A stretch of 64,000 bases of DNA from Candidatus Eiseniibacteriota bacterium (GCA_963717505.1 OY970342.1:2624001-2688000); one strand, 5' to 3'; positions 4,049 through 13,322 are shown, counted from the stretch's first letter. The notes: generated by a model not told the origin, from the letters alone. Numbers and translations: made by a program.

Positions 4049-5869
4049 CTAGTTCTCCCGATTCAAGAGCACCATCTGCCACACCCAAACGTCTCCGGTA
4101 GCTCCGGCCGGTAGCTTGCCAAGCACATCCGCCAGTCGTCCGGGGGGTGACGATTCAGTGCTCAGGGCTTCCATCATGCCGCCGATCCCGCGCAGGGACG
4201 CCATGGCCTCGGGGCTCACCGAGTGGTAGCTGATGGGGGCGTCGACCTGTGTCTTGGGGAACGACTCGATTTCGTCCTCGAGTTCGACCAGCGGTTTACG
4301 CGAGGCCAGCACGATCACGGTCTCGGAGCCACCCACACTGGTCACCTGCCAGTTCACAGCCCGGTCCCGGTAGTGGCCGGGCAGGCGGTGAACCACCCCC
4401 GGAGGGAGCGGGTTCACCGGGGTGAGGTCAGGGGCGGGGTAGAGCACGAACACTTGGCCCTGCTGGTCTTCGCTGAGGATGTAGGCATGTATGCGCTCGG
4501 GGCACTGGAGCTCGAGGTAGAGGCCGTCGCCGGGAGCGACGGGATCGCTCTGGCCCAATAGGGTCGCCGTCCCCGCGCGCACACGGTGCAACGTGGCCGT
4601 GGCCACGATGGGTGCCGTCGGCGAACCGGCGGGAACACGTTCGGAGTCTTCGATCCGCCGGCTCGCATCCTCCGCGTCGCGCGCGGTACCGGGAGCAACG
4701 GGTTGGCTCGGGCTCACAGACATCCCGCCATCGCTGAGGGTCGTCGGATGCCATGGGTTCATGCGAACCCCGACGACCGCCAGAGCGATGAGCACAATGG
4801 CGGTCAACGCCAGTAGCAGCGCGTTGGGGCGTGACGACGGGGGGCTGATCGCCTGGACCAGGGCCCGCTCGAGGGCTCCCGCACTCGAGTTGCGGCGATC
4901 CGGGTCTGGATCCATGGCCTGCTCGATCACGCGGACCAGCCCCGTTGGCAGCTCCGGGCGCGCGTCGCGGAGTAGGACCTCCGGGCCGCGTTCAACCTTG
5001 CTCAAGAGGTCGGCCGCCGGGGTGGTCGTATGCGGGTATCGCCCCGTAAGCAACCGATAGAGCAAGACGCCGAGGCTATACAGGTCCGATCGGGTATCGC
5101 CGCGATCGCCGCGCAAGCGCTCCGGCGGCATGGCCGCCAAGGTTCCAAATGCCGCGAGTGGCTCGGGACCCTGCGCCTCGCTGCTGGCGCCAAAATCCAT
5201 CAGGACGATACGGCCGCCGTTCTCACGCATCACGTTGTTGGTCGTCACGTCGCCGTGGACGATGCCCGCGGCATGCAGGGCGGCCAGCGCGCGGCACAGA
5301 TCGACGCCGATGCCTGCCGCTTCATTGGCGCTCAGGGGGCCGCGTTCCCCGAGCATCTGCTCCAGAGTCTGCCCGGCAATTCGATCGCTCCAGATACCGA
5401 TTCGGCCCTCGAAACGCCCCACGCCATGAACGATCACAACATTGGGGTGCCGCACTCGCGCCAGCCGTTGGGCTTCGTCGAGGAAGCGATCCTCGGCGAA
5501 GAGGGGCAGACGGCGGTCTCGCCGAAGCACTTTGAGGGCGACCTCGCGTTTGAGACCGGTGTCGAACGCTACGTACACGTCGGCGTAACTTCCCTGGCCG
5601 AGAACCCCGCGGATCTGCAGCGGCCCCCAGGCTCCGCTCGGGAATGCCGCGAGGATCTCCGGCGGGAGGGGCCCGATCTCGCCCCCGGCTGCCGGATTCG
5701 GCCCAACCTCCTGAACGCGATAGGCAGCGGCGATCTGCTCCACGACCCGCAGCTCTTCCACCACTTCCGCGGGTTCTGTCCGCGCCCGCTCGGACTGCCA
5801 ATCCACGGGCGTGCCGTCGGCCACCGCCCCACACAGCTCATCGAGGTGATCCTCATTGCGCTCGTTCAC
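4049..5869 (-). CDS. Transmembrane Hanks-type Ser/Thr protein kinase with C-terminal DUF4384-like domain
   Basis: GQGSYADVY, VALK, HPNVV, HGDVTTNN, DFG, SDLYSLG. One TM helix (ALLLALTAIVLIALAVVGV). C-terminal GDGLYLE…YILSEDQQGQVFVLYP…ETVIVLASRKPL resembles DUF4384. Overlaps the end of the sigma gene. Confidence 0.88.
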   Translation of the reverse strand: MNERNEDHLDELCGAVADGTPVDWQSERARTEPAEVVEELRVVEQIAAAYRVQEVGPNPAAGGEIGPLPPEILAAFPSGAWGPLQIRGVLGQGSYADVYVAFDTGLKREVALKVLRRDRRLPLFAEDRFLDEAQRLARVRHPNVVIVHGVGRFEGRIGIWSDRIAGQTLEQMLGERGPLSANEAAGIGVDLCRALAALHAAGIVHGDVTTNNVMRENGGRIVLMDFGASSEAQGPEPLAAFGTLAAMPPERLRGDRGDTRSDLYSLGVLLYRLLTGRYPHTTTPAADLLSKVERGPEVLLRDARPELPTGLVRVIEQAMDPDPDRRNSSAGALERALVQAISPPSSRPNALLLALTAIVLIALAVVGVRMNPWHPTTLSDGGMSVSPSQPVAPGTARDAEDASRRIEDSERVPAGSPTAPIVATATLHRVRAGTATLLGQSDPVAPGDGLYLELQCPERIHAYILSEDQQGQVFVLYPAPDLTPVNPLPPGVVHRLPGHYRDRAVNWQVTSVGGSETVIVLASRKPLVELEDEIESFPKTQVDAPISYHSVSPEAMASLRGIGGMMEALSTESSPPGRLADVLGKLPAGATGDVWVWQMVLLNREN

Positions 5870-6446
5870 GCTTCATCTCCTCGGCGAGTTTCTTGAGGGA
5901 TCGCTTGATGAGCTGGCGCGCCGCCTCGGGTGAGATCATGTTCGTGGCGCGGGCGATGTCGTCATAGGTGAGGCCGTACTCGATGCGCAAGACGATTGCT
6001 TCTTGGGCATGTCGGGGCAGACCCGCCAGGGCGCTTTCGTAGCGCTCCAGTGCCTCATGACCGATCGCATCCTCCAGCGGCGAGGGTTGCGGATCGGAGA
6101 GATTGTCATTCAACGCCTCCTGCGCCGGGCGGCGCGAGTGCTTGCGGGCTTGGTCTCGAACCTCGTTGAGCAAGATCTGGCGCAGGTACGCGAGAAAGGA
6201 ACCATCGCCTCGGTAATCAAAGGTCGCTATGTGCTCAAACGCCTTCTTGAGGGTGACCTGGACGAGATCATCGGTGTCGCCGATGCCTCGGGCACATCTG
6301 GGCAGTCGGCCATGAGCCAGACGCCGCAAGATCGGAAGGAATCGGGCGAAAAGGCGGTCGCGGGCGCGCGGGTCGCCTGAGCGAAACAGTGTCAAGAGAT
6401 CGGCGGTGGATTCATCCGGGAGCGGCTCGCCCCGTAACTCGGCCAT
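5853..6446 (-). CDS. ECF-type RNA polymerase sigma-70 factor
   Basis: Region 2 (GDPRARDRLF…DTDDLVQ…FLAYLRQILLNEVRD) and region 4 (LAGLP…AIVLRIEYGLTYDDIA). ATG at 6446 has a GAGGA RBS; upstream starts are possible. Confidence 0.92.
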   Translation of the reverse strand: MAELRGEPLPDESTADLLTLFRSGDPRARDRLFARFLPILRRLAHGRLPRCARGIGDTDDLVQVTLKKAFEHIATFDYRGDGSFLAYLRQILLNEVRDQARKHSRRPAQEALNDNLSDPQPSPLEDAIGHEALERYESALAGLPRHAQEAIVLRIEYGLTYDDIARATNMISPEAARQLIKRSLKKLAEEMKRERAQ

Positions 6447-12700: not shown

Positions 12701-13322
12701 CGGGCGCGAGTCCGCGTTCCCGAATGGCTGCTGCCCGCCGAATCAGGGAATCCGCGGCGGCGTCCTGAAAGAGGTCGTATTGCTGAAGTCCCAGCCAGTG
12801 CATTGAGCGGGCGACCTCCAGGTGGTCGTCCCCCAGTGTTCGCCGGCGAATCTCGAGTGATCGGGTGAAGGCCGCGGCCGCTACCGAATCTCGGCGGCGG
12901 TCCCCCAGCAGCCGCTCGGTCCCGGTGCGCACGGCCAGGCCGACCACGAACCAGCTGCTGGCAACGTCCGGATGATCTGGACCCAGCGCGCGTTCGCGAA
13001 TCGCGACCGAACGCTGAGCCGCTTCGAGCGCGCGTGGGTGCCAGAAGCGACCGCCCATGACCATGGCCTCGGCAATCAACTCGAGGGCACGAGCAGCGCG
13101 CAGGGAGTCCGGAGGCGAAGACGACTCTGCCGCGACTGCGATCGACGACGCCAAAGACTCGGCCTTGGCATACTGGCCGCGATCGATCAGCGTGCGGGCG
13201 ACGGTGAACTCAGACGGGGCGGGCGCGCCCCGAGTGGAGCCCGCGACGCCGGCCCGCGGGAGGAACAACGCGGCGAGAAAGAGGAGTACGGCGAAGCGCC
13301 GTCGCGGCCTACAGGGGAGCAT
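9789..13322 (-). CDS. Exported TPR-repeat CHAT-domain (caspase-like, clan CD) protease 2
   Basis: Signal peptide (RRRFAVLLFLAALFLPRAGVA), TPRs, VVPDGTLH, HLATHGFF, VLSACETG, SLWAV and HPFVWGGF. Confidence 0.92.
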   Translation of the reverse strand: MLPCRPRRRFAVLLFLAALFLPRAGVAGSTRGAPAPSEFTVARTLIDRGQYAKAESLASSIAVAAESSSPPDSLRAARALELIAEAMVMGGRFWHPRALEAAQRSVAIRERALGPDHPDVASSWFVVGLAVRTGTERLLGDRRRDSVAAAAFTRSLEIRRRTLGDDHLEVARSMHWLGLQQYDLFQDAAADSLIRRAAAIRERGLAPGHPDLAESMFGRAMMSTTQGRLDDSLYRRAIALTETALGPEHPILAERLVAYAIAIRSQFRFEEARQLIERALAIHERALGENLLTARTLNALGVNYVWAGDFERAVPVFERNLAMARSVVGRNHRDVAKVLLDLGDLVSRLGNEAEARAMLEESISIMEAVLPADDLLLALGLDMLGQHYAASGEAGRALAAYQRSLHIRRRRLPPGSGAIGESLSRLSTVTPGIENRYRLMEEAAEILINAAGPTSYRAARGLGLLAEVRNYRGDHAEALRLVLQSNNLWRQLRGPMSSDLGWGLYLLARIYEVTGHVRDATATFEQCAQVFEGVRGPDHTETAMARRWLSDHHLRMGRPREAFATAARADAIRREHLRRNVQAMSERQSFLLATSWNSLRGEGLNLLLQLACGPLSSDAEIREAAWDAVIRSRAIILDVLAARRGMLAVAADADARNHLERFEATVRRLSNLEVRGVPGDDPAQFLNRWQAAQRERDQAERDLAAHSGRWRTVQERSRFGFADLGSALPPRTALVAYARLEPYAYGLPPRDTLPARYVAFVLGAHSDHPELIALGGSGMVDSLVLGWQALVQRPASMHSEPEREREYRREAARLRAAIWDPIAARLAGADRVLVVPDGTLHLVNLATLPVGKSEYLVERAPIPHLLSAERDLALGVTIASWGRGLLAVGAPDFDAELGLRVADAETPPSADSDPVYRGPRSSCGEFRDIRFASLPAASQEVQSIGRLWRSHSQSWTDAATGADTIREEPAYVLIGARATETEFKRRAPGCRVLHLATHGFFVDGTCRHQPPGDRGIGGMVAADSVLKPPPANESPLLLAGLAMAGANHREDAPLNNDDGILTADEIAALDLSSVEWAVLSACETGLGTIRRQEGVVGLRRALRVAGARTTIMSLWAVDDEATRAWMTALYEARLVRGLGTAESVNQAQLKVLQDLRRTGASTHPFVWGGFVAVGDWR

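Follow-up and report, generated by a model that had tools for sequence, protein, structure and literature searches.

The analysed window, a 64,000-nucleotide (nt) stretch of Candidatus Eiseniibacteriota bacterium DNA (GCA_963717505.1 OY970342.1:2624001-2688000), carries at positions 4049-13322 four closely packed genes on the minus strand, which encode two TPR-CHAT proteins (CHAT1 and CHAT2), a sigma factor of the extracytoplasmic function (ECF) type and a Hanks-type Ser/Thr kinase with a DUF4384 ectodomain. We give an even chance to the reading that they form an envelope signalling module whose three components (the protease gene being doubled here) are the ECF sigma factor, a single-pass DUF4384 Hanks kinase and exported, separase-like TPR-CHAT cysteine proteases that would process a motif shared by protease and kinase. 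All four open reading frames (ORFs) were intact, in DNA of 66% G+C. The sigma and kinase genes overlapped by 17 nt (5853-5869); gaps of 128 and 40 nt separated CHAT1 from CHAT2 and CHAT2 from the sigma gene, respectively.

9789-13322, minus strand: CHAT1 gene (P0001, 1177 amino acids), with a signal-like N-terminus, kinesin light chain (KLC)-type TPRs, a helical middle and CHAT at residues 809-1175
6535-9660, minus strand: CHAT2 gene (P0002, 1041 amino acids), with a weaker signal-like N-terminus, TPRs at about residues 100-460, a helical middle and CHAT at residues 685-1038
5853-6494, minus strand: ECF sigma factor gene (P0003, 213 amino acids, TTG start)
4049-5869, minus strand: Hanks-type Ser/Thr kinase gene (P0004, 606 amino acids, GTG start)

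When the two CHAT proteins were compared with Pfam, each matched TPR_12 eight times (TPR_10 was also matched) and the CHAT family (PF12770, cut-off 24 bits) with 201.9 bits and E 1.9e-59 for CHAT1 and 212.0 bits and E 1.6e-62 for CHAT2. The catalytic motifs HLATHG and LSACETG were kept in both proteins. All 27 of 27 homologues in the alignment had the catalytic residues H858 and C946 (CHAT2 numbering), and this invariance speaks for a functional protease.

13233-13322, minus strand: CHAT1 residues 1-30, with the positively charged n-region RPRRRF, the hydrophobic core FAVLLFLAALFL and then AGVAG
10326-10343 and 10068-10088, minus strand: CHAT1 catalytic motifs HLATHG and LSACETG
7084-7101 and 6814-6834, minus strand: CHAT2 catalytic motifs HLATHG (His858) and LSACETG (Cys946)
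7057-7275, minus strand: CHAT2 cysteines C798 (SGCRAF) and C866 (GSECPS), flanking flexible loops of the CHAT domain; a candidate disulfide

The best 13-residue Kyte-Doolittle mean of the N-terminal signal-like segment was 2.72 in CHAT1, a strong value, and 1.86 in CHAT2, where the segment was weaker and proline-rich. Both window proteins and 24 of 25 homologues started with basic residues, followed by a hydrophobic core and then by small residues of A-x-A-like type; the remaining homologue was truncated by the end of its contig. By eye, consecutive arginines preceded the hydrophobic core in CHAT1 (RPRRRF) and in homologues L031, L034, L039, L040 and L090; such a twin-arginine (Tat)-like signal would suit the export of a folded 110-kDa protein. 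The two cysteines C798 and C866 were both present in 18 of 27 sequences and both absent from 8, with a single sequence holding only one of them, the pattern expected of a disulfide in an exported protein. Judged by the signal-like N-termini and the co-occurring cysteine pair, the CHAT proteins are probably periplasmic.

The AF2 model of CHAT2 was confident (predicted local distance difference test, pLDDT, 85.1; predicted TM-score, pTM, 0.85) except in loop 865-899, where pLDDT fell below 50. An N-terminal TPR superhelix was packed onto a C-terminal CHAT fold, an architecture of the separase/craspase type. A Foldseek search with the model retrieved separase (9hn0_B, E 7e-15), Csx29 (8eey_B, E 5e-13, TM-score 0.57 on the target) and DdvA (8rot_A, E 2.7e-12); overall TM-scores against separase were low (0.29-0.40) because only parts of the structures superpose. 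The closest relatives of the CHAT TPRs were the TPRs of kinesin light chain. When residues 440-1041 of CHAT2 were modelled together with the kinase ectodomain, the complex prediction scored 0.01 (mark 0.32), which counts neither for nor against binding.

4868-5611, minus strand: Pkinase domain of P0004, residues 87-334
4766-4822, minus strand: transmembrane helix, residues 350-368, followed by a variable Pro/Ala-rich linker
4292-4537, minus strand: DUF4384, residues 445-526, followed by a tail
4061-4090, minus strand: conserved C-terminal strand VWVWQMVLLN, well packed in the model

The kinase matched Pkinase with 122 bits and had VALK, H-G-D, the Asn and DFG, with the catalytic-loop Lys replaced by Thr (HGDVTTNN). 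DUF4384 (PF14326) was matched at 40 bits against a cut-off of 27. Only one hydrophobic helix, at residues 350-368, was found in the protein; because it lies behind the kinase domain, the linker, DUF4384 and the conserved tail are placed outside the cytoplasm. The AF2 model of this ectodomain was an all-beta sandwich with a pLDDT of 84.9 overall, above 90 over residues 1-110 and below 50 at residues 136-148 (P0004 560-572). No solved structure was retrieved with it in a fold search at E <= 0.001, and a sequence search of the PDB gave nothing meaningful. The N-terminal segment of the kinase (residues 1-60, with AVADGTPVDW; listed at 5798-5869) was conserved in all aligned kinases as two helices, L..LA.AVADG.PVDWE ... 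L..L..IA, and had no family match in Pfam, anti-sigma families included. This segment could be the docking site for the sigma factor. In six other kinase-family members (P0045, P0078, P0064, P0072, P0101 and P0151) TPR repeats were seen inside the ectodomain, between the transmembrane helix and DUF4384; those of P0045 and P0078 were of the TPR_12/TPR_10 type, as in the CHAT proteins.

6258-6278, minus strand: sigma2.2 sequence DTDDLVQ of P0003, with a family-invariant Thr

P0003 consisted of sigma2 and sigma4 domains only (Sigma70_r2 at residues 48-122 and Sigma70_r4_2 at 150-203, plus PF07638; TIGR02937 at 83.5 bits against a cut-off of 42.9), which makes it an ECF (group 4 sigma70) factor. 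In NCBIfam it was nearest to TIGR02984, below the cut-off of that family, and it held a GRLP insert typical of PF07638-type sigmas. The sequence D/E-T-x-D was present in nearly all of 59 aligned sigmas. Membership of ECF43 was rejected, since sigma2.2 retained an acidic D-T-D-D and not an uncharged QTTA-type sequence.

The architecture given in a preliminary description of this DNA was confirmed at the level of single genes: four packed, co-oriented genes with an overlap of sigma and kinase, intact His/Cys dyads and signal-like N-termini in both CHAT proteins, and one kinase transmembrane helix that puts DUF4384 outside. Its placing of the CHAT proteins and DUF4384 in one compartment also agreed with the predictions made here from the signal-like N-termini, the cysteine pair and the kinase helix.

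The proteases and the kinase carried a common short motif, R-G-[IV]-G-G-[LVM], at the following positions.

10263-10283, minus strand: RGIGGMV in CHAT1, residues 1014-1020, on the loop that links the catalytic His with the Cys
7018-7038, minus strand: RGIGGLV in CHAT2, residues 875-881; part of the low-confidence loop 865-899, with His858 ahead of it and Cys946 behind
4172-4192, minus strand: RGIGGMM in the kinase ectodomain, residues 560-566; the loop that holds it (560-572) is predicted to be flexible and links the DUF4384 beta-sandwich to the C-terminal strand

When kinases were aligned, a nearly invariant L-R-G-[IV]-G-G-[LVM] was found behind DUF4384, in 144 of the best 150 family representatives. 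The CHAT copy was part of an insertion between the catalytic His and Cys and was followed by a variable Pro/Ala-rich stretch; its Arg (Arg875) was conserved in 27 of 27 homologues, the Gly at +1 in 22 and [IVL] at +2 in 25. Both copies fell in low-confidence loops of otherwise confident AF2 models (CHAT2 865-899; kinase 560-572). TPR-CHAT paralogues not tied to DUF4384-type kinases, L013 and L028 (genome G026) among them, had shorter loops without the motif. In the host genome, the pattern RG[IVL]GG[MVLI] occurred in six ORFs, three of them module proteins; CHAT2 was missed by the filter on third-position G+C (GC3).

The motif also co-varied between partners. Over motif positions 3-9, the mean identity of 26 cognate pairs was 3.69, compared with 2.47 +/- 0.18 for shuffled pairs, and none of 20000 shuffles reached the observed value. 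One kinase motif, that of L084, was mis-picked by the regular expression, which lowers the observed identity and works against the co-variation result. Since related loci are not independent, partners were also permuted only within genomes holding two or three modules; the true pairing scored 45, the maximum, which was reached by 1 arrangement in 96. Single substitutions were matched across partners: Leu replaced the second glycine of Gly-Gly in the CHAT loop of L084 (RAIGLLV), in the L084 kinase tail as aligned (RGIGLL) and in both L088 partners (RGIGLL). Both partners had an identical motif in L039 (LRGVGGMVP) and in L047 (RGIGGMAE), and in one genome RGVGGMAPA was common to a CHAT and a kinase that were unlinked. 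That the motif occurs by chance was rejected by the pattern count in the host genome, the 20000 shuffles and the within-genome permutation. Recent gene conversion was likewise rejected: about half of the identical motif residues used different codons, showing that the match was kept at the protein level and not copied recently.

An invariant Arg followed by small residues, lying in flexible loops of a protease and of its neighbour and co-varying between them, is best explained by one recognition site encoded within the module. Judging from the sequences, this site is most likely the CHAT active site with Arg at P1. An alternative that we consider unlikely is that the motif is a docking site at which no cut is made, a short linear peptide that the CHAT protein binds in its KLC-type TPR groove or at an exosite. 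Protease loop and kinase tail would then compete for binding in a regulated formation of complexes, the CHAT protein would be a co-receptor or would be tethered and inhibited as separase is by securin, and the targets of its active site, if it has any, would be other periplasmic proteins. The relationship of the CHAT TPRs to those of kinesin light chain, which bind short peptides, fits this alternative, as does the occurrence of the same TPR type inside the kinase ectodomains of P0045 and P0078; co-variation, moreover, points to a module-encoded recognition site without saying which. However, clan CD cleavage sites show this pattern of an invariant Arg with small residues after it on a flexible loop, the motif lies within the catalytic domain between His and Cys and not near the TPRs, and the invariance of the dyad favours a working protease.

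To follow the module beyond the window, 40 relatives were searched for CHAT2, the sigma factor and DUF4384, and 40 loci were fetched (39 at sigma matches and one at a DUF4384/CHAT match); with four from the host genome, 44 were examined. Genome G026 was counted in the 40-relative and 206-genome tallies and entered no alignment, synteny count or motif pair. A kinase ORF adjoined the sigma gene in 43 of 43 sigma-bearing loci. The kinases were of two kinds, one of about 600 amino acids ending in DUF4384 (25 loci) and a longer one with PD40 propellers or AAA_16/TPR (19 loci). A TPR-CHAT gene was present in the fetched DNA at 19 of the 25 DUF4384-kinase loci compared with 1 of the 19 others, and at 10 of 20 more distant DUF4384-kinase loci. 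The CHAT gene goes specifically with DUF4384-type kinases, and the recurrence of the gene set is far beyond chance. Of 206 genomes in the phylum, 84 contained the family by an ectodomain profile search. In a library holding 1.84 billion representatives, 665 clusters (50% identity) matched at E <= 1e-30, showing that the kinase family is not rare. A single-protein scan of genome contigs gave only four generic kinase matches, in other phyla.

The synteny expected from the preliminary description was therefore conserved, but two of its details were particular to a few loci. The commonest order was sigma > kinase > CHAT; the protease came first in the window (CHAT1 > CHAT2 > sigma > kinase) and in L039, so the window's order is not the general one. 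Two CHAT genes were found only in the window, L044 and L037, most loci having one, and the proposed two-protease initiator/effector cascade is thus not a conserved feature. The CHAT genes were sometimes unlinked from the kinase. The module was strongly paralogous and diversified, with up to 4-5 copies per genome at 30-45% identity; in the host genome, a single 4.16-Mb contig, there were 4 paralogous sigma-kinase pairs besides 8 genes with CHAT and 3 with DUF4384. The same genome had the module a second time, in L097 (216001-236000), with a TPR-CHAT gene containing RGLGG (217673-220981) and a sigma gene (225979-226524); its DUF4384 kinase was frameshifted and had lost the tail motif, and a beta-propeller/FlgD_ig gene and a TPR-only gene lay between CHAT and sigma.

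The gene order bears on another explanation, in which the CHAT proteins are outputs. Here the sigma-kinase pair would sense alone through DUF4384 and drive the neighbouring genes for exported proteases, whose targets would be external (competitors, phage proteins, envelope turnover); the motif would be a site for maturation or for a third-party protease. ECF sigmas commonly control neighbouring genes, as described in PMC7826278, the protease gene comes last in the usual order, and CHAT genes can be unlinked from the kinase. We nevertheless regard this explanation as very unlikely. A third-party enzyme cannot account for module-specific co-variation inside genomes with several modules. Further, no fourth conserved neighbour gene was found across the examined loci (one large cluster consisted of spurious off-frame ORFs over conserved genes). 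A weak negative is that no conserved ECF-type promoter was found: a scan for AAC-N14-18-CGT upstream of 59 sigma genes gave only scattered matches, and k-mer enrichment gave no clear motif.

If the motif is a recognition site of the CHAT protease, the following sequence of events can be proposed. The TPR superhelix would gate the protease on a periplasmic cue, and the CHAT active site would recognise R-G-[IV]-G-G-[LVM] with Arg at P1. The copy in CHAT's own loop would be an autoprocessing or autoinhibitory site, and the copy in the kinase tail would be a substrate in trans. A cut between the DUF4384 sandwich and the last strand would change the state of the receptor kinase, by activation or shut-off, and the kinase would then target the sigma factor, whose gene lies directly upstream; the invariant Thr of sigma2.2 D-T-x-D is a possible site. 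Cleavage and sigma phosphorylation are steps that we infer. A broader version, which we put forward tentatively and rate somewhat below an even chance, is that of a bacterial protease-activated receptor kinase: the exported, separase-like TPR-CHAT protein would autoprocess at R|G-[IV]-G-G within its catalytic domain and then cut the same, co-evolving site in the DUF4384 ectodomain of its cognate kinase, so that periplasmic proteolysis leads to phosphorylation of the ECF sigma. DUF4384 would then serve caspase-like proteases in general, as a module that presents substrates or allows docking, and each paralogous module would have its private variant of the site.

The functional reading of the preliminary description stood in part. 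Processing of the CHAT proteins by each other and of the kinase ectodomain is consistent with the shared, co-varying R-G-[IV]-G-G, with the cut itself at the level of proposal. Phosphorylation of the sigma factor, which it also expected, was not supported by the sigma type, which is not that of the ECF43 phospho-switch, or by the window kinase, which is without the catalytic-loop Lys.

Several observations weigh against the proposed signalling module. The catalytic-loop Lys, missing from the window kinase, was retained in 17 of 23 kinase homologues, and the window protein may accordingly be a weak kinase by its sequence. Because sigma2.2 keeps its acidic D-T-D-D, the charge-switch mechanism of ECF43 cannot be carried over as it stands. 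CHAT2 had only a weak signal-like segment. CHAT was not seen in the fetched DNA at 16 of 45 DUF4384-kinase loci, some of them at contig ends, and at L078 the CHAT protein was without the motif while its kinase had it. The non-independence of related loci means that the shuffle statistic overstates the co-variation, and the within-genome permutation was small (5 genomes, 11 pairs).

The boundaries of the unit are probably marked by two stable hairpins without T-tracts, one upstream and one downstream.

13377-13410, minus strand: hairpin, -27.1 kcal/mol, between the unrelated upstream gene P0006 and CHAT1
3902-3950, minus strand: hairpin, -36.8 kcal/mol, about 100 nt past the kinase stop

A scan of the window for sigma70 promoters and terminators found nothing above shuffled sequence. 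The four genes were flanked by genes for a TonB receptor, an ABC ATPase, two family-less secreted proteins and a Kelch protein; these are of envelope and transport type, unrelated to the module, and are not defence genes. The flanking P0005 and P0006 (14564-13446) had no Pfam match and no relatives at the other loci examined. A 762-amino-acid protein (14816-17104, plus strand) combined two Kelch beta-propellers with a C-terminal FlgD Ig-like domain, and further large secreted proteins near CHAT paralogues likewise ended in FlgD_ig, which may be a common sorting or anchoring domain. An AcrB/RND gene (17699-21159, minus strand) looked split across frames, with ACR_tran 870-947 at 17699-18541 and 446-662 at 18861-19826 and a further ORF at 19342-21159, and a paralogous kinase at genome positions 226544-228150 read in three frames. 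Together with the 86.7% completeness of the single 4.16-Mb contig, these two genes suggest assembly indels or real pseudogenes.

Neither of the gene classes that the preliminary description had called absent from the window was found as far as the searches reached: zf-HC2 anti-sigma domains, the one anti-sigma family searched, had no match inside the window and seven elsewhere in the genome, and Cas1, the one cas family searched genome-wide, was not found in the genome (86.7% complete). Its view that the system is CRISPR-independent holds to the extent of this Cas1 result. PADLOC gave only generic kinase and TPR matches and no CRISPR-associated match.

DdvA already shows control of an ECF sigma by a periplasmic TPR-CHAT domain (PMC11506125), which makes the idea less unprecedented than was first held. 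As in DdvA-DdvS, a periplasmic TPR-CHAT of separase/craspase type with a His-Cys dyad would be coupled to an ECF sigma across the inner membrane, and in both cases a CHAT cut of a flexible periplasmic loop is proposed and unvalidated. However, the TPR-CHAT of DdvA is fused to a membrane protein with an N-terminal zinc anti-sigma domain and a transmembrane helix, whereas that of the present module is a separate, probably exported protein, which starts in the window with a signal-like segment and continues directly with TPRs. Its membrane partner is a DUF4384 Hanks kinase and not a zinc anti-sigma (zf-HC2 was not matched in the window), a candidate R-G-[IV]-G-G site is present in both partners, and no CBASS or CRISPR genes are associated. 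DdvA is the only periplasmic TPR-CHAT studied; its cue and cleavage site are not known, and its self-cleavage is a proposal (PMC11506125). Elsewhere in the host genome, L098 (6656-11440; genome 3472656-3477440) was seen to hold the TPR-CHAT paralogue nearest to CHAT2 (41% identity), with a short His-Cys loop lacking RGIGG, no signal-like start apparent by eye in its 110 N-terminal residues, and a divergent neighbouring gene for a 302-amino-acid zf-HC2 anti-sigma-like protein. This locus may be a second link from CHAT to sigma control, DdvA-like but split.

Separase also cuts its own chain, at sites similar to the motif of its substrates, and is restrained by the pseudosubstrate securin. It was the best structural match of the CHAT2 model (E 7e-15), and its cut after Arg in an unstructured motif (PMC11506125) is an analogy for the candidate P1 residue. 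Unlike the proteins of the module, separase is a eukaryotic, cytoplasmic/nuclear cell-cycle enzyme, and its motif is ExxR, not R-G-[IV]-G-G.

In Craspase, as described in 10.1101/2022.08.17.504292, the TPR-CHAT protease Csx29 cleaves Csx30, which binds the ECF sigma RpoE and holds it together with Csx31, and one group of Csx30 proteins ends in DUF4384. A TPR-CHAT protease, a flexible linker beside a C-terminal DUF4384 (in that Csx30 group) and an ECF sigma output are thus common to both systems. By the same account, Craspase is cytoplasmic, RNA-guided and activated by Cas7-11, cuts after Met or Leu, and has its sigma sequestered; in contrast, the proteins found here are probably exported, the sigma is kinase-linked, Arg is the candidate P1 residue and Cas1 was not found in the genome. 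Assignment to type III-E Craspase was rejected, given the result for Cas1 (the one cas family searched genome-wide), the transport and envelope neighbours and the lack of a CRISPR match in PADLOC.

Kinase-activated ECF sigmas have been described (PMC13147305, PMC7826278). In the ECF43 group, as reported in PMC13147305 and PMC8999054, the sigma is phosphorylated by an adjacent kinase (pairs EcfP-PknT and EcfK-PknS), and the acidic DAED of sigma2.2 has been lost in favour of QTTA-type sequences. The module resembles these pairs in that its ECF sigma gene, without an anti-sigma, lies directly beside the gene of a transmembrane Hanks kinase whose extracytoplasmic domain varies, and differs in the acidic D-T-D-D, the PF07638 match and the below-cut-off TIGR02984 match of its sigma factor; in addition, the available text of PMC13147305 and PMC8999054 describes no protease partner for ECF43. 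CHAT genes near ECF54 sigmas are noted in PMC8999054. The type III-B/CBASS cluster of Haliangium ochraceum (SAVED-CHAT, PCaspase, PCc-sigma, PCi and PCk), for which 10.1101/2023.06.23.546230 demonstrates a proteolytic cascade, likewise combines genes for a sigma factor and a Ser/Thr kinase with those for two caspase-like proteases. As described there, it is cytoplasmic, responds to cA3 by way of SAVED, and has an inhibitor and a C14 caspase among its parts, whereas the two window proteases are paralogues of TPR-CHAT type with putative export signals, and a single one is usual at related loci.

These precedents raise the possibility of a system for phage defence or conflict, akin to Craspase, DdvA or SAVED-CHAT, in which the periplasmic protease would detect a phage or predator protein and the kinase and sigma would switch on a defence regulon. 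Every experimentally studied sigma-linked TPR-CHAT or SAVED-CHAT module is defence-linked, as far as the accounts of DdvA (PMC11506125), Craspase (10.1101/2022.08.17.504292) and the H. ochraceum cluster (10.1101/2023.06.23.546230) go, and the strong paralogy and diversification of the module would suit such a role. We consider it quite improbable, however, as the PADLOC matches were generic, Cas1 was not found in the genome and the flanking genes serve envelope and transport functions. A defence role concerns biological function and is compatible with the cleavage mechanism proposed for the module.

What appears to be new in this locus, on the evidence of its sequence, is the combination of a stand-alone exported TPR-CHAT protein with a DUF4384 receptor kinase, and the motif that they share; neither was described in the literature searched (supplements excluded). 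How periplasmic TPR-CHAT domains signal is an open question, and according to the available text of PMC13147305 it is not known how the ectodomains of sigma-linked Hanks kinases are switched. The module brings together work on Craspase, on DdvA and on ECF-kinase pairs, three lines pursued separately until now. It gives DUF4384 a first testable role, with a defined candidate site in both partners, and a substrate-presenting or docking function of DUF4384, if true, would also account for why some Csx30 proteins contain it and why it is found fused to caspase domains. Since natural specificity variants of the site exist, experiments with swapped motifs can test the proposal directly. The matching sequence in protease and kinase, which marks the likely cut site, makes a new route of trans-envelope signalling testable.

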